From IMG/VR virus record IMGVR_UViG_3300037840_000255: a stretch of DNA of 20,000 bases; one strand, written 5' to 3'. The notes under the pieces were generated by a model. The model did no database searches. It saw only the letters and a list, made by a program, of their open reading frames with translations, and was not told the origin of the DNA. This DNA is from an uncultured virus (IMG/VR IMGVR_UViG_3300037840_000255) (taxonomy: Duplodnaviria > Heunggongvirae > Uroviricota > Caudoviricetes). A program made the position numbers and the translations under genes. Of this stretch, positions 430-19,058 are shown in pieces. The first letter of the stretch is position 1, and every line of letters begins with the position of its first letter.

Positions 430-1007
430 TGCGTCGCCGTGCTTTCCTGCGCCGCCTTTGCCTTCAGGCCGCCGGCAAGTTCGCGCTGGTGTTCGTGATA
501 GCCGTTCATGAAGGCAACATAGCCGGGCGTGCCAGGCGCGTAGTCAGGCTTCGCCCTCTTATTCTCCATCGAGCATCGCTTGCCCTCACCGAACGCGCGG
601 TCGACGAGCGGCGTGCGGTCGGGCTCATTGAATAGTTCGAGTTGATCGCCCCAAGACGCGCCGACCCACAGAGCGGCTTGCAGCCGTTCCGCGATCTGGG
701 CCTTCACGTCCGCTTCGCCCTCTGGTGTCGAACAGGCGATGCCGGTGAGGATTTGCGTGATGCTGAAACCATCCGCCTTGATCCGCTTGCGCACGTTGCG
801 CAGGTCGGCCGTCGCAGTATCCAGCTTCGCCTTCGCCACCTGGAACGCCGCCTTGTCCCGGATGAAAAGTTCTTGACGCTCGCTGTCCGTCAGTTCTTTG
901 CCGGGGCCGAATGATAGTTGCTGCTGAGCCTTTTTCGTTTTAGCATGGCCGTTGCTGGCCTTCTTGCTCTTTGCCTTCAGTTGCTTCTTTGCTGCCTTGC
1001 GTGCCAT
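426..1007 (-). CDS. Phage protein: Lys-rich N-tail + GapR/DUF2312-like helical domain + C-terminal ribosome-modulation-factor-like domain
   Basis: ATG at 1007 with GGAGG SD. DLRNVRKRIKADGF resembles GapR 'DIKDVYAEAKxxGFD'. DRAFGEGKRCSMENK...PDY...AFMNGYHE resembles RMF 'RAxxxGYxAG...CPY...WLxGW'. Confidence 0.6.
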   Translation of the reverse strand: MARKAAKKQLKAKSKKASNGHAKTKKAQQQLSFGPGKELTDSERQELFIRDKAAFQVAKAKLDTATADLRNVRKRIKADGFSITQILTGIACSTPEGEADVKAQIAERLQAALWVGASWGDQLELFNEPDRTPLVDRAFGEGKRCSMENKRAKPDYAPGTPGYVAFMNGYHEHQRELAGGLKAKAAQESTATH

Positions 1008-1023
1008 TGGCACCTCCATCGGT

Positions 1024-1203
1024 TTAGTGGTTAGTGTGCCCGTCGTCATTGGCCGCAGCGTTCCACAGCTCATCATCGGCGAGAAGATCGCGCAGCAACG
1101 CGCTCGCCGCCTCGTGAGGCAACTTGCCGACTGCGCTGCTGAACGAAATCAACCGCCGAAGCGTGATAGGATCGAGCGGCACAGAGACCAATTTATCGGG
1201 CAT
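1024..1203 (-). CDS. Small protein, possibly ribbon-helix-helix DNA-binding (59 aa)
   Basis: MPDKLVSVPLDPITLRRLISFSSAVGKLPHEAASALLRDLL shows a beta-strand then two helices. The start at 1203 is chosen over the TTG at 1278. Confidence 0.5.
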   Translation of the reverse strand: MPDKLVSVPLDPITLRRLISFSSAVGKLPHEAASALLRDLLADDELWNAAANDDGHTNH

Positions 1204-1360
1204 CGAATCAATCCATCGTGGTGCGAAAAGAATCGCATGACCAGCGCCACATAGCAAAACATGATGGTGGCTTTTCAACCGTTCAGCGATGGCTTATATA
1301 CGCCTCGCGCACCTAGTGCGTTTGGTGTGGTCCGCCCCGGACCTCCCCATCGGTTCAGTC

Positions 1361-1412
1361 CCCGCGCCCGTCCCAGGTCCCGTGCGAGTAGGCGGCCCTA
1401 GGCGGGCGCGGG
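1361..1412. repeat. Long inverted repeat/hairpin in the divergent intergenic region
   Basis: CCCGCGCCCG (1361-1370) and CGGGCGCGGG (1403-1412) are perfect 10-bp arms with an imperfect inner extension (CC.AGG/CCT.GG). Further hairpins lie at 1329-1343 (GGTCCG-ccc-CGGACC) and 1308-1320 (CGCAC-cta-GTGCG). Confidence 0.75.
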
Positions 1413-1470
1413 CCATTTAAAGCGCCGAAAACCCTGCATTTTCAATAGCATTTGCGCCCCGTTGTGAGGC

Positions 1471-1499
1471 TTGAAATCCCCCACCGGGAGGCCTATCTT
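1471..1499 (+). promoter_or_regulatory. Sigma70-type rightward early promoter
   Basis: cTTGAAA (1471-1476), 17-bp spacer, cTATCTT (1494-1499). It is followed by hairpin GCCCCC-aca-GGGGGT (1506-1520) and the first rightward gene. Confidence 0.6.
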
Positions 1500-1543
1500 A
1501 TCGGTGCCCCCACAGGGGGTTGATGAACCGATGAGACACCAAA

Positions 1544-1720
1544 GTGACCCTCCGCCGAATCAAAACGGATCGCGAGCTTGTGCTGGAAGCCGCCCGCGCT
1601 CTGGCCATTTCCACAGATGGTGACGAATACGATCAGGCCTGCGCCGACATGGTGGAGGCTCTTCGCTATGCTCGCGACATCGCATGGTGGGCACAGTTCG
1701 ATAACGCGAGGGTTTCATGA
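1544..1720 (+). CDS. Hypothetical early protein (58 aa)
   Basis: GTG start after the leader GAACCGATGAGACACCAAA; VTLRRIKTDRELVLEAARALAISTDGDEYDQACADMVEALRYARDIAWWAQFDNARVS*; ATGA overlap with the next gene. Below the ORF-track cutoff. Confidence 0.6.
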   Translation: MTLRRIKTDRELVLEAARALAISTDGDEYDQACADMVEALRYARDIAWWAQFDNARVS

Positions 1721-2031
1721 CCCTCGCCCGCCTCAGCCTCAAATCCGCATATCGTGTTGCGCGCAATAGCGTGTCCCGCCGCAGAGCCGGCGCAAGCTGG
1801 AGCGTTACCACGCGCGACCCCATCACCGGCAACCGCCGCTCGGCTTCTTGCGCAGCGAAGCACGTCCGCTTTGTCGTCAGCCGTGCCCGCATCTGGGCCG
1901 CTCTTCTCGCCCTTGGCGTCAATGAACACGAGGCCGAACGCGCATCTCTCACCCTCGCCTCTATGGGCGACTGGCGCACTGTCGTCAGCACTTACATCAG
2001 ACAAACCGATGGAGCACGTCATGCCCGCTGA
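1717..2031 (+). CDS. Hypothetical basic protein (104 aa)
   Basis: ATGA coupling with the upstream ORF; its end overlaps the start of the AAA gene. Confidence 0.6.
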   Translation: MTLARLSLKSAYRVARNSVSRRRAGASWSVTTRDPITGNRRSASCAAKHVRFVVSRARIWAALLALGVNEHEAERASLTLASMGDWRTVVSTYIRQTDGARHAR

Positions 2032-3598
2032 AACCCTCACACGCAGCCAAGCTAAGGCGGCAGATGTTGCTGCGCTCTGGCGCGCACGCGCCCCGCTTCT
2101 CTGGATCGACAGCCGAGAGGAGGCGCGCGTCGAGCGATATCTTGCCGCCGCCGCCAAGTCGATCAAGTACGGTGTTATCACCTGGGATGTGGCCGTCGGT
2201 TTTGCCGACGCGACAGGCGAGCCTCTCAAAGAACCGGAAGGTTCGCGCGATCCTGGCGTCGCTCTCGACTTCATCCGCGAACGCGCCAAGGGCGGCGACC
2301 GCACTGTGTGGGTCCTCCGTGACTTCCCCACATGGCTGACAGGACCGGCCGGCGCGACCACGCTGCGCCAACTGCGCAACCTCGCGCGCTCGCTTCCTGA
2401 CGCCGATCTGGCCAGCACGCAGGCCGTGGTGGTTCTCTCTCCGACGGCCGAAGTCCCGGCCGAACTGGCAGACCACGCAACGGTCATTGAGTGGCCACTT
2501 CCCGACCGCGCTGAGATCGGCGAGGTCCTCGACGAGGCTGTCAAGACTGGCGGCGATAAGGTCGAGCCGCTCAACGGCAAGCGCGAGGCGGCTATTGATG
2601 CCGCTGTCGGCTTGACTGAAGGCGAGGCGGTTGCGTGCTTCAATCGCTCGCTGGTGCAACTGCGCAAGATCGATCCGGCTATCGTCGCCGCCGAGAAGCG
2701 CCGCGTCATCAGCCGCGAGAAAGTCTTGGAATGGTATGACCCGCTCCCCGGTGGGCTCGACGCGGTGGGCGGCCTCGATAACCTGAAGACTTGGCTGCGC
2801 ACGCGCGCTTCGGCTTATTCGCCGGCAGCCCGCGCCTACGGGCTTCCTTCGCCGAAGGGCGTCCTCATTGTCGGTATCCCCGGCACGGGCAAGTCGCTCA
2901 CCGCCAAGGCGGCCAGCACGACCTGGGGCATCCCGCTGATCCGCATGGACCTGGGAGCGTTGAAGTCGAAATTTGTCGGCGACAGCGAGGCCAACATCCG
3001 CCGCGCCTTCAAAGTGATCGAGGCCGTGGGCCGTTGCGTGGTCTGGCTCGACGAGATCGAGAAGGCGCTGCAGGGGTCTACATCTGGATCATCCGACGGG
3101 GGCACGTCATCCGATCAGCTCGGCGCGATCCTGTCATGGATGCAAGAGCGTTCGAGCGAGGCCTTCGTGATCGCCACAGCGAATGACGTGTCAGCACTCC
3201 CCCCCGAACTGCTGCGCAAAGGCCGCTTCGACGAATTGTTTTTCGTCGACCTGCCGAACCGCAGTGAGCGCATCCAGATCACCATGGCGACGCTCAAGAT
3301 GTTCGGCCGCAAGTCGCATGTTGTCGATGTTGCCGCCGTTGCGGACGCGACCACGGACTTCACCGGCGCAGAGATCGCGGCCATCGTCCCCGAGGCGATG
3401 TTCACTGCCTTCAACGATGGTGCCCGCGAGATCAGCACGGACGATCTGTTGCAAGCCGCCCGTGATGTTGTGCCGCTCAGCAAAACCGCAGCGCCTAAGA
3501 TCAAAGCGCTGCGGGACTGGGCAAACGGCAAAGCCCGCTCCGCGAGCGTTGCCGAAGAGAAAGCCCCGGAGCGCAAGCTGCGCGCCCTGGATATTTGA
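2021..3598 (+). CDS. AAA+ ATPase, Ycf46/SpoVK-like (degenerate N-terminal AAA-like domain + active C-terminal AAA domain)
   Basis: ATG 2021 after GGAG; Walker A GIPGTGKS; pore loop SKFVGDSE; Walker B VVWLDEIEK; SRH ATANDVSALPPELLRKGRFDELFFVDLP; FTGAEI lid motif. Confidence 0.93.
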   Translation: MPAETLTRSQAKAADVAALWRARAPLLWIDSREEARVERYLAAAAKSIKYGVITWDVAVGFADATGEPLKEPEGSRDPGVALDFIRERAKGGDRTVWVLRDFPTWLTGPAGATTLRQLRNLARSLPDADLASTQAVVVLSPTAEVPAELADHATVIEWPLPDRAEIGEVLDEAVKTGGDKVEPLNGKREAAIDAAVGLTEGEAVACFNRSLVQLRKIDPAIVAAEKRRVISREKVLEWYDPLPGGLDAVGGLDNLKTWLRTRASAYSPAARAYGLPSPKGVLIVGIPGTGKSLTAKAASTTWGIPLIRMDLGALKSKFVGDSEANIRRAFKVIEAVGRCVVWLDEIEKALQGSTSGSSDGGTSSDQLGAILSWMQERSSEAFVIATANDVSALPPELLRKGRFDELFFVDLPNRSERIQITMATLKMFGRKSHVVDVAAVADATTDFTGAEIAAIVPEAMFTAFNDGAREISTDDLLQAARDVVPLSKTAAPKIKALRDWANGKARSASVAEEKAPERKLRALDI

Positions 3599-3623
3599 AC
3601 CCTGAACCGAGAAAGGCTACGCC

Positions 3624-4361
3624 ATGTTGACCACAAGCACCCTCCGCCCCGGCTATCTGGTTTCTCTGAAAACCTCAGTCCGTGGCAACGTCCACTATGC
3701 CCGCACCGACCTGGGCAGCGAACAGGATGGCAGCGCAGCCATCGACAAGTGGACGACTAAGCGCACCATCGATGATCCAGTCGAACATGAGCGCGCCGGC
3801 AAGGCGCGGTCCAAGGCGGCCTCGGTCATCCGCTCAGTCTGCAAACAATCGGCCTTCGGCTTGCTCTGCCCAGAAGTGGACAGCGATAAGCTGGAAGCCG
3901 CCACGGCCGAGGCCCGCAAGATCATCGACGACTTCAACGACACAGCGCAACTGTCCCGCATTTCGATCTATGTGCTGACGGGGCGCGTCATGCCTGACGA
4001 CGTTGAGGCCGTGCGGGCGATCAACTCGGAGATTCGGGAGTTGATGGCGGAAATGTCTGGTGGCATCGAGAACGGCGACGTGGCCGCGATCCGCGAGGCG
4101 GCATCCAAAGTGAAAGGCATCGGTGAGATGCTCAGCACCGACGCCCAGACCAAAGTCGAGATGGCGGTGAAGGCCGCCCGCGAGACGGCGACGAAGATCA
4201 GAAAGGCTACCGACGACGGCGAGACTACGCTGAAGGTGGATACCTCTGCCGTCCGTCGCATCAACGAACTGCGCACCGCGTTTCTTGACCTGGATGATGC
4301 AGCAACCGTGGCCGCGCCCCGCAAGGTCGCGACCGCCCAGCTTGACCTCGCAGCGGAGTAA
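3624..4361 (+). CDS. Helical partner protein of the AAA ATPase (DUF3150-like)
   Basis: 245 aa directly after the AAA gene. 'SAFGLLCP' followed by long helices matches my recollection of DUF3150-like partners of these ATPases; the family call is tentative. Confidence 0.5.
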   Translation: MLTTSTLRPGYLVSLKTSVRGNVHYARTDLGSEQDGSAAIDKWTTKRTIDDPVEHERAGKARSKAASVIRSVCKQSAFGLLCPEVDSDKLEAATAEARKIIDDFNDTAQLSRISIYVLTGRVMPDDVEAVRAINSEIRELMAEMSGGIENGDVAAIREAASKVKGIGEMLSTDAQTKVEMAVKAARETATKIRKATDDGETTLKVDTSAVRRINELRTAFLDLDDAATVAAPRKVATAQLDLAAE

Positions 4362-4368
4362 AACAGTC

Positions 4369-4710
4369 ATGGCGTGCGAAACAATGCGCAAGCCCAAGCA
4401 AACGCTCCAAGAGCGCATCGCCGAGATCACTAAGGCGGTTGCGCTCTTGGACGCCAAGCTGAAGAAGCGGCTTGTGAAGCCGGTGATCGGCCCGCAAGGG
4501 GCGATTACCTTCAAAGGCTGGGATGATCCAGCCGAACGCAACGGCATAACCGATGCATGCGCCTACCGTCGCATTATGGCGACCGGCTCAGTCCTCGCGA
4601 AGCAAGAGATCGCTCGCGCGGAGCAGTTGGCTGGTCGCTCGGTGGATCGGCAGGTCATTGGCCAGGGAACCCATAGTCATGATGGCGGAGCGACGTGGTC
4701 GCGGCACTGA
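4369..4710 (+). CDS. Third gene of the AAA module, unknown function (113 aa)
   Basis: GGAG SD then ATG 4369; MACETMRK...IGPQGAITFKGW...ITDACAYRRIM...GTHSHDGGATWSRH. Confidence 0.75.
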   Translation: MACETMRKPKQTLQERIAEITKAVALLDAKLKKRLVKPVIGPQGAITFKGWDDPAERNGITDACAYRRIMATGSVLAKQEIARAEQLAGRSVDRQVIGQGTHSHDGGATWSRH

Positions 4711-4777
4711 GCGGCGGCCTTCTGGGCATCTGATAGATGCCCAGCGGGGCGTCACGCAAGGCAGCGGGCGTCGTTCA
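4708..4777 (+). promoter_or_regulatory. Structured intergenic RNA element (multi-stem)
   Basis: Perfect 10-bp hairpin CTGGGCATCT-gat-AGATGCCCAG (4722-4744), enclosed by an outer stem TGAGCGGCG (4708-4716)/CGTCGTTCA (4769-4777) with G-U pairs. No U-tract. Confidence 0.55.
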
Positions 4778-4798
4778 AACCAAACTAGGAGTCTGACT

Positions 4799-4954
4799 AT
4801 GCGTAAACGTGAGTGGACTAGAGACGACCGTGCCAAGTTGCGCAAGATGGCGACGCGCAAGCCCGCCAGGATCATCGCAGCGAGCCTGCGACGATCAGAA
4901 GGCGCGACACGGCAGAAGGCATCGTCGTTGGGCATCTCGCTCGACGCGCGCTGA
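4799..4954 (+). CDS. Small GcrA-N-terminus/Myb-like HTH protein (51 aa)
   Basis: AGGAG SD; MRKREWTRDDRAKLRKMATRKPARIIAASLRRSEGATRQKASSLGISL fits the WT..E...L.......IA..L..S..AV..K..RLG pattern. Confidence 0.75.
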   Translation: MRKREWTRDDRAKLRKMATRKPARIIAASLRRSEGATRQKASSLGISLDAR

Positions 4955-5017
4955 ACATAATGGGCGGCGGCTCACAATGAACCGCCGCCCCTCAACCTGA
5001 ACCGATGGAGTGGCGTC

Positions 5018-5476
5018 ATGGAACGTATCGAATATAAAACCAGGGACAAGAGCGGATGGGGCGATGGCCCTTGGCAATCTGAGCCGGACAAAATTCAATG
5101 GCAGGACGCCGCAACAGGAATGCCCTGTCTGATCGTGCGCAACCCTGTCGGCGCATTATGCGGCTATGTCGGCGTGGCACCGTCGCACCCAGCATTTGGC
5201 CACAGCCCTGATGAACCGGATGTCAGCGTTCACGGCGGCTTGACGTTCGCCGAGGGATGTTCGCACGGCAATGAGGCTCACAGTATCTGTCATGTGCCGG
5301 GCGATGGTGAGCCGGATAATGTTTGGTGGTTCGGCTTTGACTGCGCACATGCCGGCGATCTTTGCCCAGGGATGCCGACCTACGTAAAACCGTTTGGTGG
5401 CGAAAGCTACCGTGACGTCGCCTACGTGATGGAGCAATGCCAGCGCTTGGCGGAGCAACTGAAGGGGCAGTCATGA
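5018..5476 (+). CDS. Conserved phage hypothetical protein (LCGYV / HGGLTF / WWFGFDCAH motifs)
   Basis: Motif set typical of a widespread uncharacterised phage family; preceded by hairpin 4962-4990 and AACCGATGGAG. Confidence 0.85.
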   Translation: MERIEYKTRDKSGWGDGPWQSEPDKIQWQDAATGMPCLIVRNPVGALCGYVGVAPSHPAFGHSPDEPDVSVHGGLTFAEGCSHGNEAHSICHVPGDGEPDNVWWFGFDCAHAGDLCPGMPTYVKPFGGESYRDVAYVMEQCQRLAEQLKGQS

Positions 5477-5751
5477 CCGAGCATCCCGACTACACCTTCA
5501 CCAAAGCCGATTGGTCGCTGATCCCTGACTACATGATCGGTGGCCTTCGGCGCTGGATCGAGAACGGCATAGAGCCTGGAGACTTTCTCTGTGCCGTTCT
5601 GAAGAATGATCTGAAAGAGGCGTGCGCCCGCGCCGATGATAACAACCAGCGACGCCTCTTCCAGTACATAAAGTTCCTTTACTGCTATGCGCCGTCAGGA
5701 TGTTTCGGTTCGGAGGAGAAGTTTGATCATTGGAAGCATGCTTATCCGGTT

Positions 5752-6822
5752 TCAACATGCAGGCGCTAAAGGTTGATCGTCATGAGGGCTGACCTTCGCG
5801 TGCTGCCAGTCCCCGCTATAGAGGCCGTCATAGGTCGGGCTTTCGCCATTCGCACCGATGCCGAGCAACGAGCGGAAAGCGTTGAAGGGGTAGAAGCGGC
5901 GGTTAAAGCGGAACGCAAACTCATTGAGGTAGGCTTGCAGATGCTTCGGCTCGACGCGGCCGTGATGCGTCCCTTGAAGCCACGCTTTGAGATTGCTGAA
6001 AACAAGGTGGACGATGGGCAGGTATTCTTCGGCAACCTGCGGGTCGCCGCCCTCGACTACCGGCAGATGGGCATAGCCTCGCGTCCCGAGCGAATTGTAG
6101 GACGGCGCGGCATCGGTCACGACCATCGCGCCAAGGGCTACGGCGGCCTCGACAAAACCGCACAGGGCCTTCTCAGTGCGATCCGGCACAATCTCAATGC
6201 GGAGACGCCCGGCGTATCGGCCGCCGCGCCGCATGGGCTTATCGCCCTTCTTAGCGGGTCGTGTACGGACTTCGACGGCGGCAATGACCAGCGTCTTTTC
6301 ATCGGCGTGAACGCCTTTGCCTTTTCCCCGCGTCTCGCCGCCGACGTAGGTTTCGTCAATCTCGACGTGATCGCCACGGGCCAGATTGCTGCCAATGGGA
6401 TCGCGGTTCGGTCGCACCATGCCAGCGCGGAGCTTGTGCAGGGTTTGAAAGGCCGTCTCGTACCGTTTGAGGCCAAGCTGCCGCTGCAACTGTGTGGCCG
6501 AAATGCCGGGGGTAAGGCTGGAAACGAGATAGGCCGCCCAAAACCACGTTGTAAGCGGCGTATGGGTACCTTCCATGACGGTATTGACCGTGATGGACGT
6601 TTGCTTGCGGCAGGCAGAACAAGCCAGCACACGCGGCCGACTCGCCAGCCTGATCGGTTCGCCCTTTTCGTGGCAGTGCGGGCACTCGAAACCCTTGGGC
6701 CACTTTGCGCCTTCAAGCCAGCGGGCGCAGGCCACGTCATCCGGGAACAGCCGTTGAAAATCCCGGAGCGATTTGGGGAACGGCAGATGTTCCCATTGGT
6801 GAATGTCGTGAAGGGCGGCCAC
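5752..6822 (-). CDS. tnp: IS1595-family (ISXO2-like) transposase
   Basis: N-terminal Zn ribbon CPHC...CSAC; HTH region ISATQLQRQLG...YETAFQTLHKLR; catalytic VEIDETYVGG, VVTDAAPSY, LPIVHLVFSNLK (D-D-H-K); C-terminal HLQAYLNEFAFRFNRR. Confidence 0.96.
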   Translation of the reverse strand: MAALHDIHQWEHLPFPKSLRDFQRLFPDDVACARWLEGAKWPKGFECPHCHEKGEPIRLASRPRVLACSACRKQTSITVNTVMEGTHTPLTTWFWAAYLVSSLTPGISATQLQRQLGLKRYETAFQTLHKLRAGMVRPNRDPIGSNLARGDHVEIDETYVGGETRGKGKGVHADEKTLVIAAVEVRTRPAKKGDKPMRRGGRYAGRLRIEIVPDRTEKALCGFVEAAVALGAMVVTDAAPSYNSLGTRGYAHLPVVEGGDPQVAEEYLPIVHLVFSNLKAWLQGTHHGRVEPKHLQAYLNEFAFRFNRRFYPFNAFRSLLGIGANGESPTYDGLYSGDWQHAKVSPHDDQPLAPAC

Positions 6823-7482
6823 TTAACCCTCCCGGCCATGGAAGTCTTGCGCCGCGTCCCATCGGCTGCCTGTCTCGCCGCCGTTACTGACGCTACATAC
6901 GATGCTCGCCCATTCCGGCGCGGGGACGGTCATCTGCGCAGTGACGTATTGGCCGTCGCAATGCGTCGCCCTAACGGCCCCATCGTCAAGGCGCTTGAAA
7001 TACCAGCCATCTTTCCAGTGAAACCCGACCGTGGCTTCGTTTATGCGGGCCAACCGTTCGCGCTCGTAGCGCGCGTCATCGTCCTGTTTTCGCGTTTTTG
7101 TGCGTTCCGTATATTCAGTCCGCGCCGCTTCAAGAGCCGACTGACATTCGTACCGCCCGCACCAATTTTTATTGAGGCACATAGTGCCCGTGCTGCCGGT
7201 GGGGTTCTGGCAGTTGTCGCAAAGTGGACTATCCAGTTCTTTTTTGGCGATGGCGGCCAAAAACGCCGCCTTAGAGGGCCATCGCTTTTCCCAAACAACG
7301 CGCTGGCGCTCACCTTTAACGGCAACATCGCTTTCGGAAACGCTGTCAAAACGGAACAAACGGCGGTTGTCATAGACGCCCTTAATCCAGTGGCGTCCGG
7401 GACCGCCGTATCCCTCGATAAAGCCGCCCCTCATGTCGATCTTCGGCTTAAAGCCTTTGTTAACGGTCATTTTTGCCTCCAT
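6823..7482 (-). CDS. IS passenger gene, unknown function (219 aa, Cys cluster)
   Basis: Lies inside the IRs, co-oriented and in frame with tnp (TAA directly followed by GTG). Contains CDNC...C...C...C and a C-terminal GFHWKDGWYFKRLDDGAVR...EWASIVCSVS segment. Confidence 0.75.
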   Translation of the reverse strand: MEAKMTVNKGFKPKIDMRGGFIEGYGGPGRHWIKGVYDNRRLFRFDSVSESDVAVKGERQRVVWEKRWPSKAAFLAAIAKKELDSPLCDNCQNPTGSTGTMCLNKNWCGRYECQSALEAARTEYTERTKTRKQDDDARYERERLARINEATVGFHWKDGWYFKRLDDGAVRATHCDGQYVTAQMTVPAPEWASIVCSVSNGGETGSRWDAAQDFHGREG

Positions 7483-7616
7483 TGTTGCAGCCCTTTATCT
7501 AGCACAAGTGGGTGCATGTGTCAACCGGATAAGCATGATTGGAAGGCGCACAAGGGAATGGATTGGCCCGACATCTATGATGGCGACGGCCCTGCGCGCG
7601 TCGTGACGGTGGCGTC

Positions 7617-8021
7617 ATGCCCATAGGCTTCATGGCGTCACACGCTGCGCTGGAACGCAAGGCTCCGCACGGCAAACCATGCACGAATTGCGGCCTATGT
7701 TGTATGGCGACTCTGTGCATGGTGGGGAAGTCTATCTATAAGCGCGTGGTGGGGCCTTGTCCTGCCTTACGTATGGAGGGCGGCGTCAGCTCCTGCGATG
7801 TTGCCACCAATCCCGCAAAGTACCGGCGCGATCTGGTAAACGCGCACGGCGAGAAGGCTGTGAGCGCTGCCGTCAAACATCTGATCGGCCTCGGCCTTGG
7901 TTGCGATGCCAGATTCAATGGCGAACAACCAGACGAAAACTTCTACAAACTGCTGAGCGAGCATGATCAGCGCACTGCGGTGGAGACATATTTGGCTAAG
8001 AGGATGTGGAATATCCCATGA
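7617..8021 (+). CDS. CxxCxxCC (YkgJ-like) Zn/Fe-S cluster protein
   Basis: PCTNCGLCC...C...GPCPAL...CD...GLGCD. Start could be 7617 or 7632. Confidence 0.7.
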   Translation: MPIGFMASHAALERKAPHGKPCTNCGLCCMATLCMVGKSIYKRVVGPCPALRMEGGVSSCDVATNPAKYRRDLVNAHGEKAVSAAVKHLIGLGLGCDARFNGEQPDENFYKLLSEHDQRTAVETYLAKRMWNIP

Positions 8022-8413
8022 GAGCAAAGCTTCCTGATAAACTGGAGAATGGACGCCTTAGAAGCGGGCCGTGGGGCTCCTCCGCGACAGATGGCCCTTA
8101 TGGCGCTTTCCGTGTCCACGGGCCGTGCGGCTCTACGCTGGCGATCATAGCCTCTGCTGGCGAAGAACCAGTGACTGAAGGTTGGCAACACGTCAGTGTC
8201 TCAACATCAAACCGGCCGCCGAACTGGCAAGAGATGTGTTTCGTTAAATCTCTTTTCTGGGACGACGAAGAGACTGTGATCCAGTTCCACCCCGCCGTAT
8301 CGGCCTACGTCAACAATCATAGCCACTGCCTGCATCTGTGGAAGCCGCCGTTTGATATGCCGCTGCCGCCGAGCATCCTAGTCGGCATCAAGGCGCTAGG
8401 GACGCTGAAATGA
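8018..8413 (+). CDS. Conserved phage hypothetical protein (WxHVSVS...HCLHLW family)
   Basis: WQHVSVS..RPPNWQEMCFVKSLFW...QFHP...YVNNHSHCLHLWKP; ATGA coupling. Confidence 0.85.
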   Translation: MRAKLPDKLENGRLRSGPWGSSATDGPYGAFRVHGPCGSTLAIIASAGEEPVTEGWQHVSVSTSNRPPNWQEMCFVKSLFWDDEETVIQFHPAVSAYVNNHSHCLHLWKPPFDMPLPPSILVGIKALGTLK

Positions 8414-8586
8414 TGACACAGACAATCGGGCCGCGAGAGAAGGCATTACGCGAGGCACGAGAGGCCCTGGCAAAACAAGTTGTGTCGCGCAAGCGACCGC
8501 CATCATCAGTAAACCAGTGGGATGATATGCCCAAGCCGAAAGCCGGGAAAACAACAAGACGCCGCTTGACCCGCAAACCACGCTAA
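8410..8586 (+). CDS. Small basic protein (58 aa)
   Basis: ATGA overlap; MMTQTIGPREKALREAREALAK...KAGKTTRRRLTRKPR*. Confidence 0.5.
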   Translation: MMTQTIGPREKALREAREALAKQVVSRKRPPSSVNQWDDMPKPKAGKTTRRRLTRKPR

Positions 8587-8594
8587 CCTACTTT
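8566..8594 (+). promoter_or_regulatory. Sigma70-type promoter for the recombination block
   Basis: cTTGACC (8566-8571), 17 bp, cTACTTT (8589-8594), then a GC hairpin (8599-8619) and AACCGATGGAG. Confidence 0.6.
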
Positions 8595-8637
8595 CATGGG
8601 GCGCTGCGTTGCGGCGTCCGAACCGATGGAGACACCA

Positions 8638-9414
8638 ATGGCTACCCCTAAAGCAAAATTGCATCAGGTTGCGCTAGCGCCCCCACAGGGGGAGGCCGGG
8701 GCTGTCCTGGCCATGATCGAGCGCCTGGCCCGCGATCCCAACGCCGACGTGGACAAGGTCGAGCGCCTTATGGCCATGCGTTCGGCCAGTATCATGCGGG
8801 ACCGGGAGGACGCCTTTAATGCCGCCATGGCGGCCGCCCAGAAGCGCATGGTGGCCGTGGTCAAGGATGCCGCCAACGCTAGCACCCGCAGCAAGTACGC
8901 TTCCTTCCCGGCCCTGGACCGCGCCGTGAGGCCTATCTACACCGATGCTGGGTTTTCTCTCTCCTACGATACTGGCGACGCCCCCCACCCGGAGACGGTC
9001 CGGGTGCTCTGCTACGTGAGCGGCCACGGATTCACCCGGACCTATCACGCCGATATGCCCGCCGATGGCAAAGGAGCCAAGGGCGGTGACGTGATGACGA
9101 AGACCCACGCGGTTGGTTCAGCCTTCACTTATGGGCAACGCTACCTCCTGAAGTTCATCTTCAACCTTGCCACTATTGACCGGGACGATGACGGCAATGC
9201 TGCCGGCAATCCAGAGGACAACGGACCGATCACGCAAGCCCAGATCGAAGTCCTCGAAAAGATGGTCGCCGAGATCGGCGGCAAGCGCGCCGACGAGTTA
9301 CGCACTTCCACACTTGCCTATTTCAAAGCCGAGACGTTCGCCGACATCACCGCCAAAGAGTTCAAGCGCGTGGTCGCCGCGCTAAACAAGAAGCGGCAGC
9401 AGGCCACGTCATGA
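8638..9414 (+). CDS. erf: ERF-family single-strand annealing protein
   Basis: ATG 8638 after GGAG; SKYASF..LD..VRP...GFSLS; signature VGSAFTYGQRYLLKFIFNL...DDDG; C-terminal ITQAQ helical domain. Confidence 0.92.
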   Translation: MATPKAKLHQVALAPPQGEAGAVLAMIERLARDPNADVDKVERLMAMRSASIMRDREDAFNAAMAAAQKRMVAVVKDAANASTRSKYASFPALDRAVRPIYTDAGFSLSYDTGDAPHPETVRVLCYVSGHGFTRTYHADMPADGKGAKGGDVMTKTHAVGSAFTYGQRYLLKFIFNLATIDRDDDGNAAGNPEDNGPITQAQIEVLEKMVAEIGGKRADELRTSTLAYFKAETFADITAKEFKRVVAALNKKRQQATS

Positions 9415-10058
9415 CCGAGATCGAGCAGGGCTCGCCAGAGTGGCATCAACTGCGGCTCGGCAAATTAACCGCTTCACGCATTGCCGACGCAACCACACGT
9501 CTCAAAAGTGGCGGCTGGGGCGCAAGCCGCGCCTCCTACATGGGCGAGCTGATAGCAGAGCGCCTGACTGGCGTGCCGTTCGAGGCTTACGTCAGCGCCG
9601 CCATGAAGCAAGGCACCGAGTTGGAGCCTGAGGCGCGTGCGGCCTACGAATACTACGAGAGCGTAGTCGTCGAGAAGATCGCCTTCATTGATCATCCTGC
9701 CATCGCCATGAGCGGGGCAAGCCCAGACGGCTTTGTCGGTCGCGACGGGCTTGTCGAATTGAAATGCCCGCTGGTTCACACGCACATCGCCACGCTGCTC
9801 GGTGATTCCATCGACGGCAACTACATCAAGCAAATGCAATGGCAGATGGCCTGCAGCGGGCGCAAGTGGTGCGACTGGGTGTCGTATAGCCCTAAGCTAC
9901 CAGAACGCATGCGTCTGTTCGTTAAGCGTGTGCCCCGCGACGACAAGATGATCGCTGGCCTGGAGGAGGACGCCAAAGGCTTCCTGTGGGAACTGGATAA
10001 GGCCGTCATGGCGCTGCGCAATGCTTATGGAGAGACCGATGCCGCAACCGCAGCATAG
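9411..10058 (+). CDS. YqaJ/lambda-exonuclease family 5'-3' exonuclease
   Basis: QGSPEWHQLRLGKLTASRI, AMKQGTELEPEAR, GASPDG..GLVELKCP, YIKQMQWQM...WCDWVSY. Confidence 0.95.
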   Translation: MTEIEQGSPEWHQLRLGKLTASRIADATTRLKSGGWGASRASYMGELIAERLTGVPFEAYVSAAMKQGTELEPEARAAYEYYESVVVEKIAFIDHPAIAMSGASPDGFVGRDGLVELKCPLVHTHIATLLGDSIDGNYIKQMQWQMACSGRKWCDWVSYSPKLPERMRLFVKRVPRDDKMIAGLEEDAKGFLWELDKAVMALRNAYGETDAATAA

Positions 10059-14518: not shown

Positions 14519-14734
14519 ATGACTTATGTCACGGAACAGACCGGCGCCGAGCTTCGTAATCACATGAGGCGCCTCATCGTCATGCCGGGATGGCATGATC
14601 CGTTGTGTGATCGCTTATGGAGTGAGGTCCAAAAACAGGATGCCGAGATTGCACGTCTGCGAGCGGCGCTGACTGAATGTGCGTCAAACTTTATCAGCCA
14701 GCCCTGCACGGTACCGGGGAAGCAGCCGTCATGA
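14519..14734 (+). CDS. Hypothetical phage protein, probably with a chimeric 3' end
   Basis: DAEIARLRAALTEC motif; the 3' end runs into the 42-bp repeat. Confidence 0.6.
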   Translation: MTYVTEQTGAELRNHMRRLIVMPGWHDPLCDRLWSEVQKQDAEIARLRAALTECASNFISQPCTVPGKQPS

Positions 14735-14758
14735 CCCATATAAAAGCCGGCTGTCAGG
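14717..14758 (+). repeat. 42-bp direct repeat, copy 1
   Basis: GGGAAGCAGCCGTCATGACCCATATAAAAGCCGGCTGTCAGG; 39/42 identical to 18614-18655. Confidence 0.95.
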
Positions 14759-14919
14759 TTAACAGGAGTTTGGGAGACCGCTGGAATGCCTACCAATTCG
14801 AGCAATCGACCGCATGGGAAACAAGCGAGGCGGCTTAACGGCTGCTGCCTGCGTGGCGAGCAGGGTCACCCGCCAGTATCAACAAGTTAACCGCCAACTT
14901 CAAACCAACGGAGACTAAA

Positions 14920-15219
14920 ATGGCTTTCTCTACGGGATCATCAGGACAACAGGCAAATACAGTTCGAGGGCCTTCCGTCGTCGGGTCAATCGAAGATTTT
15001 GACGCGGTGCTGCAACGTGGCGATGACTACGCAAACCGGCTGCAAAAAATCTCTGACCGCATCTGCGGCTCGGGCCCGGCAGAGTTGCTACAGCCTAGCC
15101 ATCAAGGCGGTGCCATCCCTCATTCCGTCATCGCCTCAATCAACGAGCGGCGGTCACGGCTGGTCGAGTTGTTGGATCGCGTCGAGCGGTCAATCGGCCA
15201 GCTTGAAAACGTGCTGTAG
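14920..15219 (+). CDS. Hypothetical helical phage protein (99 aa)
   Basis: GGAG SD; followed by a 10-bp hairpin at 15219-15243. Confidence 0.75.
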   Translation: MAFSTGSSGQQANTVRGPSVVGSIEDFDAVLQRGDDYANRLQKISDRICGSGPAELLQPSHQGGAIPHSVIASINERRSRLVELLDRVERSIGQLENVL

Positions 15220-15271
15220 GCGACTGTTACGGAAACAGTCGTCAACTTCATAGGTTTAGGAAGCGGTCAAA

Positions 15272-15502
15272 ATGTCAAGTCAGACTGGACAAATCGCCCG
15301 ATCTTCAAACCGGGATACGGCGAAACTCATGGCGCTAAAGGAAAGCGGCATCAGCGGAACGAGCGAGGCCGTCTGCTTTGCGAAGGGCTGGGAGGCCGCG
15401 ATGGACTGCGCTGCTGAAAGTATCGACGCCCTTTTGTCAGCGGTTCATGAGCGGGAACTTGGCCGCACCATCGCCTACGCTATTTCGACTTTGAAAGAGT
15501 AA
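15272..15502 (+). CDS. Hypothetical phage protein
   Basis: ORF in the coupled array; GWEAAMDCAA motif. Confidence 0.6.
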   Translation: MSSQTGQIARSSNRDTAKLMALKESGISGTSEAVCFAKGWEAAMDCAAESIDALLSAVHERELGRTIAYAISTLKE

Positions 15503-15520
15503 TGACAGATTAATCGCCAG

Positions 15521-16270
15521 ATGACCGAGCCTCGGATTATATGTCGCTACTCTTGTGGGGCCGCTTCGGCGGTAGCCACCAAGATGACATTGCGTAAATA
15601 CGGTCACGGTCGCGTCGAGATTGTCTACGACCCCGGTTCCGAGCATCCCGATAATGTGCGGTTTCGAGCGGATTGTGAGCGATGGTTCGGCAAGCCGGTG
15701 ACGGTCCTCAAGTCCGACAAGTACGCCGACACTTGGGCGGTCTGGGAAGGCGAGCGGTTCATTGCCTCACAGCATGGGGCGCCATGTACCGGAATCCTCA
15801 AACGTGAGCCGTGGCACGCGGTGGAGCGCCCGAGCGACATCCTAGTGCTTGGCTACACGTGCGAGGAACGGGACCGGGCGGACAGTCTCCGCAAGGCGAA
15901 TTTTGAGCGCATGATCGAGACGCCGCTTATCGAGGCTGGACTATCCAAGGCCGACTGCCTCGCCATGATTGAGCGCGCCGGCATCGACCTGCCTGCGATG
16001 TACCATCTAGGATTCCAGAATAACAATTGCATCGGCTGTCCCAAGGGCGGCCGGGGCTATTGGAACATGATCCGCAAGCACTTCCCCGAAAAGTTCGATC
16101 GCATGGCGCTTTTACAGCGCGAGCTGGGGGTGGCCTTTTGGCTAGAGCCGGATGGCACAGAGCTATTCTTAGACCAGCTAGACCCGAAACGCGGGGTACA
16201 GCACGACGAGCCCAATATCGACTGCTCGGTGATGTGCCATATCGCGGAGAAGGATTTGGCCGATGTCTGA
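15521..16270 (+). CDS. PAPS-reductase-like / adenine nucleotide alpha-hydrolase (PP-loop) phage enzyme
   Basis: ICRYSCGAASAVA PP-loop variant, EHPDNVRF, GAPCTGILKR, LGYTCEE..RA, PLIE..LSKADC, MYHLGFQNNNCIGCPKGG.GYW, CSVMC. Confidence 0.85.
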   Translation: MTEPRIICRYSCGAASAVATKMTLRKYGHGRVEIVYDPGSEHPDNVRFRADCERWFGKPVTVLKSDKYADTWAVWEGERFIASQHGAPCTGILKREPWHAVERPSDILVLGYTCEERDRADSLRKANFERMIETPLIEAGLSKADCLAMIERAGIDLPAMYHLGFQNNNCIGCPKGGRGYWNMIRKHFPEKFDRMALLQRELGVAFWLEPDGTELFLDQLDPKRGVQHDEPNIDCSVMCHIAEKDLADV

Positions 16271-16451
16271 CGCCGTACGGGAGTTTGAGAACAGCATTTG
16301 CGGAACCTGCCCGCGCTGTGGCGCCGTCTGCGATTACGGCTGCCGCTGCCCGAACCGCGACCCGGAGTTTCCATTGGTCAAGTACGATGATCCGCGCGCA
16401 GTAGAGGCGCGCAAACGACGGCTAACTTCTGCAATGCAGGAAAAATCATGA
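16263..16451 (+). CDS. Small Cys-rich protein
   Basis: CGTCPRCGAVCDYGCRCP. Confidence 0.6.
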   Translation: MSDAVREFENSICGTCPRCGAVCDYGCRCPNRDPEFPLVKYDDPRAVEARKRRLTSAMQEKS

Positions 16452-16777
16452 GCGAGAGCGAGCACACGCCGGGACCGTGGATCATAAACGATGAAAACCC
16501 ACGGCGTTTAAAAGTTGAATGTTCGGCCTACGAGGACGAAACACCCGGCATCTGCGGTGCTCATTCTAAGGAATGGCCTTTAACTCGCGACGACGCGCGC
16601 CTTATTTCTAAGGCGCCAGAATTACTGATGGCGCTCATCAAGCTGTCTAACGAGGCTTCCGGCTGGTTCGGCTATGAGCCCGAAATGCGACAGATAGCGG
16701 GCAATACGAATTTCGCGGTCCTGAAACAGCGCGTCGATGAGGCCAGGGCCATCATCGCTGAAGCGGTCGGCAGTTAA
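16448..16777 (+). CDS. HTPGPW-family phage protein
   Basis: HTPGPW...DARLISKAPELL.AL...ARAIIAEA. Confidence 0.85.
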   Translation: MSESEHTPGPWIINDENPRRLKVECSAYEDETPGICGAHSKEWPLTRDDARLISKAPELLMALIKLSNEASGWFGYEPEMRQIAGNTNFAVLKQRVDEARAIIAEAVGS

Positions 16778-16793
16778 CTGAGGTAATTCACCC

Positions 16794-17003
16794 ATGACCC
16801 ACGAACGTACATTAGCTGGTCGGGCACTCCTAGAGCAACGCGACGCCGTGAGAAAATGGATTGAGCAGAATCGAGACAGCGCGGAGTCATCACAGATTGA
16901 AGCTGCCGAATTGCTGTCCTGCGAACTTTACTATGCGGCGGCTAATGGTGACACGAGTCGTCTGTTGCGTCGTTACTCGCCAACTGTACGAGGGGAACCA
17001 TGA
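16794..17003 (+). CDS. Hypothetical protein
   Basis: GAGG SD; ATGA coupling to the next gene. Confidence 0.6.
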   Translation: MTHERTLAGRALLEQRDAVRKWIEQNRDSAESSQIEAAELLSCELYYAAANGDTSRLLRRYSPTVRGEP

Positions 17004-17446
17004 CCGTCAAGGTGCCGCCCTTCACGCTCGCCGACGCCGATCCGTCGATGATGAACGCGGTTCTTCGGCGCATCGGCCGACCCTGGCGCAAGATCGGCGC
17101 TACGTGGCCCGACTACGGGCTTGTGCGCGTGCAGTGGGAAGGTCCGTGGACGAAGCCCGGTGTCCCGAAGCGCGCCAGATACCGCTACACGCATTGGATA
17201 GGAGCTGCGGAGCGTTCCGGCGAGACCGGCATCTTCGACATCAACTGCATCAATAATGGCACCGGCTGGGTGTCTCTGAAGGATTGGTACAATCTTGTCG
17301 TGCCGTTCATCATCAAACAATATCCGCGCGCTACTGGCGGATGGCACATCACACACGCAATCGAAATCGAAAAAGCCGGGAAGATTGCGCGCACTGTGCT
17401 TAGCTTCCCAGGCGATCCCGATCTTGAACTGACAGCAGCAGAGTAA
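17000..17446 (+). CDS. Hypothetical protein, possibly a degenerate papain/C39-like fold
   Basis: THWIG...IFDIN His-Asp pair is present; no N-terminal Cys. Confidence 0.55.
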   Translation: MTVKVPPFTLADADPSMMNAVLRRIGRPWRKIGATWPDYGLVRVQWEGPWTKPGVPKRARYRYTHWIGAAERSGETGIFDINCINNGTGWVSLKDWYNLVVPFIIKQYPRATGGWHITHAIEIEKAGKIARTVLSFPGDPDLELTAAE

Positions 17447-17457
17447 CACGGGGTTAA
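17444..17457 (+). repeat. Junction 14-mer TAACACGGGGTTAA, copy 1
   Basis: Starts at the stop codon of the upstream gene; identical to 18160-18173. Confidence 0.9.
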
Positions 17458-17462
17458 TCGCC

Positions 17463-17708
17463 ATGAACTGTAAGCACTGCAAAGGGACTGGGCGCATTGA
17501 GCGGACTGGCGACGGGTCGCTCTACAGCCAAATTGCCAACCAGACAGACCGTTGCCCAACCTGCCGAGGGTCAGGAACCCTCAAGCCTGACTTCCCAACA
17601 CTGCCCGGTGGCAGGGTTGATATTGACGCTATGAATAGGGCTAATTGCCCCGACGTGCTTCATGGAGGTCGTGAAGAAGATTGCCAAGACAACGATGAGG
17701 GGGCCTGA
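17463..17708 (+). CDS. DnaJ-type zinc finger protein
   Basis: CKHCKGTG...CPTCRGSG (two CxxCxGxG repeats). Confidence 0.75.
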   Translation: MNCKHCKGTGRIERTGDGSLYSQIANQTDRCPTCRGSGTLKPDFPTLPGGRVDIDAMNRANCPDVLHGGREEDCQDNDEGA

Positions 17709-17713
17709 CGAGT

Positions 17714-17920
17714 ATGATGCTCGATTGCATTGATACATCCATGAATTACCCCTACCGCGCAAAATGCAGCTGGTGCGGGAAGGAATGGTATTCCGTAGTA
17801 CCCAAGGGGCATCAACACATCGTTGCGTGTGGCGCCTGCGGATCGGGCGATGTCGAAATCTACGGTTTGAGAGAAAACGTCGGATATGACCCAACTTCAT
17901 CCGACGATGTAGACCACTAA
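17714..17920 (+). CDS. Small zinc-ribbon protein
   Basis: CSWCG...CGACG. Confidence 0.6.
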   Translation: MMLDCIDTSMNYPYRAKCSWCGKEWYSVVPKGHQHIVACGACGSGDVEIYGLRENVGYDPTSSDDVDH

Positions 17921-17934
17921 CCAGGGGCGTTAAC

Positions 17935-18162
17935 ATGGCAAAATCAGCACTCGATAGCAGTCTTGATGAACTAGAGCGCGTGAACGCCATTAGGACGCGC
18001 ATTCATCTTGCGGCTAAGGAGTTGATCGAGTCCAAGCAATCGACCTATCGCGCCAGGAATGGCCGCGACATGGGAATAGAGGACGAGTCTGGGGAGAAAT
18101 GCTGGATCGTTCCGTTCGATAAAATGGATGCACTGATCGCCGCGTTGGAAGCTGACGGCTAA
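17935..18162 (+). CDS. Hypothetical phage protein
   Basis: TYRARNGRDMGIEDESGEKCWIVP motif. Confidence 0.7.
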   Translation: MAKSALDSSLDELERVNAIRTRIHLAAKELIESKQSTYRARNGRDMGIEDESGEKCWIVPFDKMDALIAALEADG

Positions 18163-18173
18163 CACGGGGTTAA
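18160..18173 (+). repeat. Junction 14-mer TAACACGGGGTTAA, copy 2
   Basis: Identical to 17444-17457 and again starts at a stop codon. Confidence 0.9.
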
Positions 18174-18178
18174 CGGCA

Positions 18179-18451
18179 ATGCCGCAAAAGATCGACATTC
18201 CCTTAGATCAAGCAATTGCCCTCGTCCGCGCTTGCCAAAAGCTGAATTGCGACACGGCTGAGCAGCTATTCGATATGGTCAATGAGCGGTGCGGGGAGAT
18301 TAAGACGCTACGCGAGGCCCTAGAGCCATTTGCCGACATTCCCCTCGCAAGGGACACTGACCGGAACGCGCCGAACAGAATTGAAGCTGTCGATATGGCA
18401 ATCACCCCGAAGCAGGTTCGCGTGGCGCGATCAGCCATGCGACACACTTAA
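18179..18451 (+). CDS. Hypothetical phage protein
   Basis: EIKTLREALEPFA...VRVARSAM motif. Confidence 0.7.
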   Translation: MPQKIDIPLDQAIALVRACQKLNCDTAEQLFDMVNERCGEIKTLREALEPFADIPLARDTDRNAPNRIEAVDMAITPKQVRVARSAMRHT

Positions 18452-18470
18452 CGACAGACAGGACGTTAAC

Positions 18471-19034: not shown

Positions 19035-19058
19035 CCCGTCCAAAGCAGGGAGATTGAA

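Follow-up and report, generated by a model that had tools for sequence, protein, structure and literature searches.

A start-associated sequence at early genes of an uncultured phage, with a start-less mirror copy that may be an antisense RNA

Mycobacteriophages of cluster K carry start-associated sequences (SAS) and ESAS, which the cluster K paper describes as an asymmetric, start-proximal word at non-structural genes that is rare in the host (PMC3203893). The same paper reports four phages with a single copy of the SAS on the opposite strand that is not linked to a start, and it leaves it possible that the partner of the motif is an RNA or a protein (PMC3203893). Motifs of the SAS type are also described from Microbacterium phages of cluster EF (PMC7302621). 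In the literature that we found, no function has been assigned to SAS motifs since 2011. Two phage RNAs are also relevant here, as summarized in the accounts that we cite: the c4 RNA of P1 and P7 is a structured RNA with short exposed segments that blocks the ribosome-binding site of the phage's own early mRNA (PMC12197685), and the CI RNA of P4, which is cut from its target transcript, pairs with the phage's own early mRNA and causes termination (PMC4825925).

We analyzed a window of 20,000 nucleotides from an uncultured soil virus (IMG/VR IMGVR_UViG_3300037840_000255). Its host is probably alphaproteobacterial, and we used the order of Bradyrhizobium as a proxy (the "host order"). The 11-mer AACCGATGGAG, or "tag," occurs four times in the window (Table 1), in each case 6-7 nt before an ATG, as the preliminary description had it. 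In dinucleotide shuffles of the window (n = 200), the mean was 0.02 copies and the largest number was 1. Among the 17 ORF starts in the window that are led by GGAG, four have AACCGAT in front of it, while a position matrix predicts about 1e-4 per start. (AACCGA by itself is not enriched in the window, with 14 occurrences against a mean of 9.7.) The variants at 1525, 3602, and 1342-1358 (minus strand) also have the sequences originally described; those at 1525 and 3602 lack GGA or GGAG but keep the AACCGA handle, and the copies at 1525 and 8620 have 18 of 19 nt in common. The reported hairpins ahead of 1525, 5000, 8621, and the minus-strand copy are present, and the two sigma70-like promoters said to precede tagged genes are the top two sites in the window by a weighted scan. 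(A second promoter scan lists 1470-1499 only and not 8565-8594.)

Contigs from a second run cover 1049-2727 (with one difference) and 2828-4833, 4832-5270, and 8048-9500 (with none). Because these contigs span every copy except for 1014-1024, the tag is not an assembly artefact. Among contigs from four runs, there is a strain that is about 4-5% divergent across three of the tag sites. Around the four exact copies, flanking identity is only at the background level (3.7 of 14 positions), so the core has been kept without recent copying.

The tag is a real motif and is a start-associated sequence. It is an asymmetric word that lies 6-7 nt ahead of start codons in a single orientation relative to the gene, and it combines an SD core (GGAG) with conserved bases (AACCGAT) beyond the pairing with the anti-SD. 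The window has no structural genes, and the tagged starts of two other phages (G001 and G161, described below) are in early or replication regions. The tag is also rare in the host order: we found 36 exact matches in 150 genomes (589 Mb), or about 1.2e-4 of GGAG-N5-8-ATG sites, and its density in the phage window is about 3,000 times higher. As in the motifs of clusters K and EF, an SD core is joined to conserved bases that have no pairing partner in 16S rRNA (PMC3203893; PMC7302621). Unlike the cluster K motif, the tag has a different sequence, is 11 nt long, and is present in 6 copies in 20 kb instead of 11-19 per genome (PMC3203893). Neither the 13-nt consensus nor the 17-nt inverted repeats of the ESAS were matched in the window, where the hairpins upstream of the tag vary between copies. 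The probable alphaproteobacterial host also sets this phage apart from those of clusters K and EF, as does the structured mirror copy that we propose as the partner. A literature search on the 11-mer turned up no phage paper by title.

Table 1. Tags, promoters, and related features in the window
Feature	Position	Strand	Remarks
Exact tag	1014..1024	-	6 nt ahead of ATG 1007, gene for 193-aa basic protein
59-aa ORF	1024..1203	-	First gene of leftward operon; ribbon-helix-helix (RHH) look
Weak promoter-like site	1271..1300	+	No T at -7; would start candidate RNA near G1307
Candidate antisense RNA, ~114 nt	~1307..1420	+	Between divergent early operons; from predicted fold and pairing
Two-part tag homologue without gene start	1321..1358	+	Mirror image of 1525/8620 starts
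Sigma70-like promoter	1470..1499	+	Rank 1 in window (weighted scan); ahead of rightward early operon
5' hairpin	1506..1520	+	After promoter 1470
Variant tag, one G fewer	1525..1542	+	Ahead of GTG 1544, start of the first gene downstream of promoter 1470 and the 5' hairpin
Exact tag	2004..2014	+	6 nt ahead of ATG 2021, AAA ATPase (PF00004, phrog_8638)
Variant tag with CTGAACCGA and AAGG-type SD	3602..3616	+	Ahead of ATG 3624 (phrog_11021)
13-pair hairpin	4962..4990		Upstream of tag at 5000
Exact tag	5000..5010	+	7 nt ahead of ATG 5018 (phrog_2164)
Sigma70-like promoter	8565..8594	+	Rank 2 in window (weighted scan); ahead of erf
5' hairpin	8599..8619	+	Ahead of erf tag
Exact tag, within 8620..8637	8621..8631	+	6 nt ahead of ATG 8638, Erf (PF04404)
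Tag relative, two mismatches	14903..14913	+	Ahead of ATG 14920; membership uncertain

The 193-aa protein (426-1007) was originally called GapR/RMF-like, and this is only a lead: it has no match in a Pfam search, one of 14 homologues has PF04957, and the Atlas rows that hold RMF or GapR score under 0.9, with those families in 11-20% of their members. The 59-aa ORF also has no match in a Pfam search; Atlas row 18 scores 0.91 for it, and RHH families are found in 14-20% of the members of that row. The stop of this ORF is overlapped by the tag at 1014-1024. The ATG inside the tag is in frame at 3 of 5 sites in the window, so there is no rule of dual starts.

All copies had been thought to be in the sense orientation, but the copy at 1342-1358 on the minus strand has no ORF start behind it. 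Read on that strand, the homologue begins with the tag's 5' half (1358-1344), continues through a hairpin of 15 nt (1343-1329), and ends with the spacer of the 1525 and 8620 starts (1328-1321). This two-part pattern was absent from all 5,000 shuffles of 1204-1500, and the summed best matches (59, against a shuffle mean of 39) were not reached in any of 2,000 shuffles. The start-less homologue is not a chance match.

We suggest that the start-less copy may be part of an antisense RNA, and our preferred but tentative reading is that the tag is recognized by this phage RNA through base pairing. GGAG would be the Shine-Dalgarno core, and AACCGAT would be a recognition handle that is kept by selection and that marks the genes that lead the two early operons or stand alone within them. 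A small plus-strand RNA (~1307-1420), made in the stretch without genes that separates the divergent operons, would leave its complement to AACCGAU unpaired. Pairing would nucleate at this site and extend across the SD and, at the promoter-proximal starts (1544 and erf), onward over the spacer via a three-way junction. Several early mRNAs would be denied 30S entry simultaneously, and a transcript that continued beyond 1420 would mask the 1544 start in cis as well. If this is correct, then one small RNA co-regulates scattered phage genes at translation, possibly in place of a protein repressor, and a tag with its matching antisense RNA offers a direct and cheap test of SAS function.

The candidate RNA is predicted to fold into two short hairpins, an exposed anti-tag, and, at the 3' end, a long hairpin that is rich in GC and is followed by a weak U tail. 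The part that mirrors AACCGAU is predicted to be 0.67-1.0 unpaired. The fold z of 1307-1420 is -2.96 on the plus strand (0 of 200 shuffles) and -2.74 on the minus strand; both strands fold alike. The transcription of this RNA from the plus strand, its repressive action, and its timing are our predictions. The promoter-like site at 1271-1300 ranks 36th in the window, where 75 sites score at least 12, and is not significant alone. When the candidate RNA was cofolded with 58 starts, the six tagged starts ranked 1, 2, 3, 5, 14, and 16, with a mean of -13.0 kcal/mol for tagged starts versus -6.3 (the best of 40 shuffled RNAs gave -9.8); these ranks are partly circular, because a reversed relic copy would pair equally well. 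In a predicted read-through fold, the anti-tag pairs with the 1544 start in the MFE and centroid structures alike. Scored by contiguous pairing, the anti-site reaches 9.8, and the control median is 10.0. We also note that it has a C facing the A of GGAG. Rfam had no match at the gathering score, and for 900-9000 gave three matches at chance level (E up to 5).

By prediction, the candidate is, like c4 and CI, a structured RNA whose short exposed segments pair with early mRNA of its own phage, and like c4 it would block ribosome-binding sites; c4 and CI, as described, each act on one leader or mRNA, whereas the candidate would act on unlinked starts on both strands (PMC12197685; PMC4825925). As in the account of GcvB, a single RNA seed would meet an A/C-rich element directly 5' of the SD in many mRNAs, but GcvB is an Hfq-type sRNA of an enterobacterial host with degenerate targets, and the tag's targets are near-identical and phage-internal (PMC3879156). 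StxS and other phage sRNAs are similar in being short RNAs from a regulatory region that act in trans, but those covered in the cited account target toxin mRNA and host genes, and no common start tag is described for them there (PMC12197685).

A more doubtful extension is that this is a lambdoid-like phage in which a small RNA stands in for CI as the repressor and shuts off the translation of key genes in both operons. The gap between the operons lacks a repressor gene, the RNA would be transcribed in the direction of cI, and one start tag is common to both sides. If so, the purpose of SAS-type motifs would be explained. An equivalent logic of tag and anti-tag, with the RNA gene at a different place, may be present in G161.

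The tag word is found at early genes of two distantly related complete phages, G001 (AAA protein 57% identical; 6-7 starts, including that of the homologue of the 3624 gene, phrog_11021, which has an exact tag) and G161 (8 starts). There is a near-match in G003. The genome of G161 (66.7 kb) has AACC(A/G)ATGGAG at 8 starts and one start-less copy, the complementary strand of which carries a promoter-like site, an anti-tag hairpin, and a terminator-like hairpin. The fold z of this element is -4.64 in the anti-tag direction versus -2.41 in the other. It is clearly the best anti-site in the genome (13.7 versus 9.5 for the next, and 0 of 200 control draws), and the U that faces the A/G position could wobble to fit both variants. 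In cofolds, tagged starts occupy ranks 1-5, and four tagged starts rank 28-144 among 169. Three homologues of the J-domain gene of G161 were fetched, and the two that we inspected have no such downstream element. Elsewhere, the anti-site candidate in G001 (with 7 tagged starts) scores 12.0 versus a control median of 11.3, which is no support, and it ranks the tags 4, 39, 40, 43, 84, 97, and 100 among 146. The top "anti-site" of G001 (7261) is inside the reading frame for the prohead protease and reflects codons. No anti-site exceeded controls in G003, G216, G218, or G162, and the top-scoring sites in G217 and G219 look like additional sense starts.

Nearly as likely as antisense reading is that the tag acts only in cis, as the "extended ribosome-binding signal" that was also suggested originally. 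An efficient A/C-rich lead-in plus SD would have spread as promoter-leader cassettes were copied across the early region, through gene conversion or recombination by the phage's own Erf-type system, with no reader in trans, and 1321-1358 would be a relic leader whose gene was lost. Enhancers of the ACA type 5' of the SD are described in the account of GcvB (PMC3879156). Other related phages carry tag words of their own, and these often form the 3' end of a leader cassette that has been copied. G164, G162, and G618 hold duplicated whole promoter-leaders that bear the word; in G003/L016 and in L009, the repeated 9-mer is the 3' end of hammerhead-like repeats. (Hammerhead core patterns are at chance level in the window itself, so we rejected a hammerhead leader cassette there; the core-like repeats are in the relatives L016 and L009.) At 18 of 69 loci of the AAA family, a 9-mer particular to the locus is present at 3 or more starts, a count that has no null and that includes some plain SD words. 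The flanks of 27 copies from 7 phage records are lineage-specific (5.6 versus 3.8 of 14; 0 of 5,000 permutations), and viral contigs show a modest preference for the tag as a start context (33 start-like sites versus 13 for a control of the same composition). However, the four exact copies in our window have nothing in common beyond the core, AACC lead-ins are not preferred in the host order (146 versus 122 for the control), and copying leaves both the intact 15-nt hairpin of the start-less copy and the anti-tag of G161 unexplained. Furthermore, the word turns up in phages whose DNA has little similarity, while G002, the nearest relative in a quick tree of the AAA gene (AAA 76% identical), lacks it. 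If the tag does act only in cis, it would be a tidy example of homogenization of phage start signals, of modest importance.

Our searches for a close relative, in which conservation or covariation might be traced, found none. Of 78 AAA loci, we checked 50, and one has the exact tag. It is absent from the 4 cultured alphaproteobacterial phages that we scanned, and 49 of 50 chosen viral records have just one copy. None of 12 candidates obtained via the 193-aa protein was a close relative, and an Erf search gave one locus (52%). The 3624 gene has relatives at 32 metagenome loci (40-63%), and none of the 24 loci that we checked, including the Erf locus, had the exact tag. The Bradyrhizobium family (401 genomes) gave only weak matches, and 1000-1720 had only chance matches to cultured phages. 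Pairing of the 5' hairpin with the tag is seen in some single-copy phages, but the A variant breaks it, so we rejected this idea.

The proposal of an RNA-level regulon stands in that the tag is best read at the level of RNA, because it is phage-enriched and tied to start codons and to strand. Its CsrA-like and RegB-type forms do not fare well. The targets of T4 RegB and RegA and of CsrA overlap the SD (GGAG, ANGGA). Unlike those sites, the tag variants at 1525 and 3602 drop GGA, and with it ANGGA, but retain AACCGA. CsrA was above the cut-off in 0 of 101 genomes of the host order. RegB and RegA have no match among the 36 window proteins scanned, which include no RNA-binding or nuclease family, or in 5 other tagged phages, where controls gave none either. 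More generally, recognition of AACCGAU beside the SD by an RNA-binding protein or nuclease, whether from the phage or its host, is unlikely; in this reading, the start-less copy on the minus strand would be a decoy or processing substrate. The fixed position and strand and the sharply conserved core would suit a protein, a word common to several phages would suit a shared host factor, and the minus-strand copy is predicted to be mostly unpaired across its 5' half. But no leftward promoter scoring at least 10.5 lies ahead of that copy, the word is almost unused in host genomes, and the many differing words in related phages are more easily accounted for by pairing or copying than by one protein.

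We consider it very improbable that the tag is a DNA operator for a phage repressor, such as a small RHH-like protein. Two copies are no more than 30 nt from predicted transcription starts and the RHH-like ORF adjoins the cluster of tags, but the tag is asymmetric and gene-oriented, overlaps the SD at a constant distance from the start codon, and also occurs deep within operons (2004 and 3602). Finally, sequences from viruses and bacteria often contain a single copy of the tag, but coincidence among SD-led starts is refuted by the shuffles and by the four tagged starts out of 17, for which a rough any-7-mer probability is ~4e-8.

The tag that stands just before start codons of this phage's early genes (AACCGAT joined to the Shine-Dalgarno core GGAG) is a real, phage-enriched start tag. 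It belongs with the start-associated sequences (SAS) of other phages, and it has a testable but unproven antisense partner. All four exact copies listed in the preliminary description are where it placed them (shuffled sequence averages 0.02), with 6, 6, 7, and 6 nt between the tag and the ATG, and a second run confirms the sequence at every copy except the one at 1014. The window has 17 ORF starts led by GGAG, and AACCGAT is found at 4 of them. Its expected rate is 4e-5 to 2e-4 per start, according to position matrices built on three sets of other starts (486, 109, and 109); even when any 7-mer is roughly allowed for, the chance is ~4e-8. The variants at 1525 and 3602 bring the number of tagged starts to six. 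These include the first genes behind both of the window's best promoters, as scored with consensus weights rather than a trained model.

The window spans the phage's early region; the phage is uncultured, and the runs that contain the window are soil metagenomes. Two divergent units are separated by a gap of 340 bp that contains no gene the size of a repressor. The rightward unit encodes an AAA ATPase and the two partners that usually accompany it (the three co-occur in 44 of 78 related viral loci). Also in this unit are Erf, YqaJ, genes resembling NinB and a PAPS reductase, and a protein with a GcrA domain. Cultured Bradyrhizobium and Sinorhizobium phages have the same Erf-YqaJ-NinB order within a lambdoid layout. 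The host is probably an alphaproteobacterium, because GcrA, the best matches of Erf (Sphingopyxis and Bradyrhizobium phages), and the best matches of the transposase (Acidiphilium and sphingomonads) all point there.

Features of the window and of the compared phage genomes and loci
Feature	Position	Strand	Remarks
Open frame	1-384	minus	Runs off left end; no Pfam match; presumably resembles a RuvC-type resolvase
Leftward unit	59-aa ORF 1203-1024; 193-aa ORF 1007-426	minus
Candidate antisense RNA	1307-1420	+
Start-less tag copy	1342-1358, within 1321-1358	minus
Rightward unit	from 1544	+	Long
AAA ATPase and two partners	2021-4710
IS1595-family element	5737-7537		Transposase 6822-5752; 219-aa passenger ORF 7482-6823; terminal inverted repeats; breaks ORF from 5473
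8-bp duplication	5729-5736 and 7538-7545		Flanks the element
Direct repeat	14717-14758 and 18614-18655		42 nt, 93% identity
TTAAC/TAAC	14759-19520		Found repeatedly where one small right-arm gene stops and the next starts; possibly a further tag or cassette boundary
Junction word TAACACGGGGTTAA	17444 and 18160		Right arm
Hammerhead-like elements	L016 9050-13200 (G003); L009 230-3230		Six and three, directly upstream of early starts; unscored by Rfam at E 0.5
Multi-hairpin leader	L012 7800-13010 (G216)		Repeated, ~90 nt; its end is an SD word shared by 10 starts; unmatched in Rfam; possibly an unknown ribozyme or processing element
Anti-tag candidate	G161 34385-34512 (L503 14385-14512)	opposite to start-less copy	Best among those examined

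The preliminary description proposed a phage-specific RNA-level regulon, and comparison with host genes does not refute this, because the tag is on just ~1.2e-4 of GGAG-N5-8-ATG sites in host-order genomes, versus 4 of 11 in the window (a ~3,300-fold difference in tag density). Specifically, 589 Mb of sequence contain 36 instances of tag-N5-8-ATG (in 32 of 150 genomes from the order of Bradyrhizobium; the seed genome, which was picked for containing the tag, was excluded), and GGAG-N5-8-ATG occurs ~507 times per Mb (five alphaproteobacterial genomes). Lead-ins with AACC are barely favored in 61 host-order genomes (146 versus 122 for a control word). Single copies precede host genes of many phyla, and 44 of 124 sampled matches look like starts. 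In Bradyrhizobium and one other alphaproteobacterium (L226, L235, L284, and G006, with five copies in the last), the 11-mer also stands before a transposase-like ORF that is repeated; the IS family of this ORF is presumed from the start of the protein.

In viral contigs, the tag with AC behind it is a mildly favored start context, often directly after a promoter (33 distinct start-like sites versus 13 for a same-composition control). Of 50 viral records selected from tag matches, 49 have a single copy; a few genomes have many. G001 (70.9 kb, complete), whose AAA ATPase is 57% to the window's, has seven tagged starts, six with the exact word and one with a GGGAG variant. In G161 (66.7 kb, complete), AACC(A/G)ATGGAG marks 8 starts, distributed over both strands, and a further copy has no start. 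This genome lacks the AAA module; it has recombination genes in common with G001 and a single small gene in common with the window. G002, the sister of the window's AAA ATPase in a quick tree (100% support), has no copy, and 18 of 69 AAA-family loci have their own 9-mer at three or more starts (a count with no null run). So phages of this gene pool often tag their early starts, with a word that differs from lineage to lineage; the window's word occurs in more than one lineage. The lineage's own 9-mer is the end of the hammerhead-like leader in L016 and L009, and it ends a different structured repeat in L012. We also note a 136-kb provirus (G217, L588-L594) in which a single 9-nt start word marks 39 genes, and a very short leader (sigma70-like promoter, CATC, 11-mer, start codon) that appears once per genome in many unrelated phages and prophages (L094, L111, L150, L169, L175, L176, L179, and L488).

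In G164, G162, and G618, the tag lies inside duplicated promoter-leader units. Flanks of the tag are more alike within genomes than between them (5.6 versus 3.8 of 14 positions; 0 of 5000 permutations), and tagged leaders clearly spread by copying. Among the window's exact copies, however, flanks are at background identity (3.7 of 14). That the core outlasted them points to selection on the core.

The preliminary description included a minus-strand variant among the start tags. The tag-like sequence is present, but no minus-strand ORF starts after it. This copy is longer than first reported: the 5' half of the tag is followed by a 15-nt hairpin and then by the 8-nt spacer of the 1544 start, 7 nt of which also precede erf. 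None of 5000 shuffles of the gap gave this two-part pattern. We tentatively favor the reading that its opposite strand gives a phage antisense RNA that would read out the tag. This RNA is predicted to fold (z = -2.96) into a pair of short hairpins and a long GC-rich one, and to leave the mirror of AACCGAU exposed (seed 0.67-1.0 unpaired). Its transcription would begin at G1307, from a weak promoter-like site without -7T; a hairpin begins with this base, and the same holds for the predicted transcripts of both strong promoters. Promoters without -7T are common in alphaproteobacteria (PMC7703639), but 75 window sites score nearly as well as this one. In cofolding against 58 predicted starts, tagged ones rank 1 (erf, -17.9), 2 (1544), 3 (3624), 5 (1007), 14, and 16. 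Three-way junctions are predicted with the erf and 1544 starts, and a transcript extended to 1560 would pair in cis with the latter.

It is also quite possible that the tag is a copied start signal that acts only in cis, with the start-less copy as a relic. Pairing scores do not separate this from the antisense reading, because both predict complementarity. Both strands of the region fold alike, and the anti-site's contiguous-pairing score is at control level (9.8 versus 10.0) because its pairing is split. The balance is tipped slightly to the antisense reading because hairpins are intact around and inside the start-less copy, no leftward promoter was found ahead of it, it sits where a repressor gene is expected, the core is conserved without its flanks, and G161 offers a similar case. 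That the candidate RNA takes the place of the repressor gene is somewhat doubtful.

In G161, the start-less copy lies directly after the last replication-side gene (a weak DnaJ match) and before a ParB-like ORF. On its other strand are a promoter-like site, ranked 16 among those of G161, a hairpin with a 13-nt complement of the tag, and a terminator-like hairpin, and this strand folds better than the tag strand (z = -4.64 versus -2.41). The site's score was far above that of every other site and of all 200 control draws, and its U faces the single target position that varies (A/G). In the predicted fold, no loop other than the SD-facing one is open, and 4 of 11 tagged starts rank 28-144 in cofolding. 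As modeled, G161 supports the antisense idea. Across the nine records scanned, this site was clear, the window's was suggestive, five were negative (G001, and also G003, G216, G218, and G162, which had no anti-site above control), and two were unreadable, as their top matches look like further sense starts. A hairpin pair in G001 (24795-24905) looks similar, but it has a control-level score and poor ranks for its tags.

Readout by a protein or nuclease is unlikely. The CsrA and RegB analogies suggested earlier fit worst, as two tagged starts keep AACCGA and drop GGA; no family of either type was found among the window's proteins, and no CsrA was over the cut-off in 101 host-order genomes. A DNA operator is very improbable, and chance copies, given the rates at GGAG-led starts, are scarcely credible.

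The tag works like the SAS described for mycobacteriophages of cluster K (PMC3203893) and for Microbacterium phages of cluster EF (PMC7302621) and fits most of their description, with a different sequence; the cluster O repeat, in contrast, is palindromic and has no start linkage (PMC4351075). We found no published function for SAS or for the tag word, in literature that included few subscription papers, and no Rfam family matches the proposed RNA. The antisense partner, if proven, would make the tag a new form of SAS. The proposed RNA would work like P1 c4 (PMC12197685) and P4 CI (PMC4825925), and it resembles GcvB in its logic (PMC3879156).
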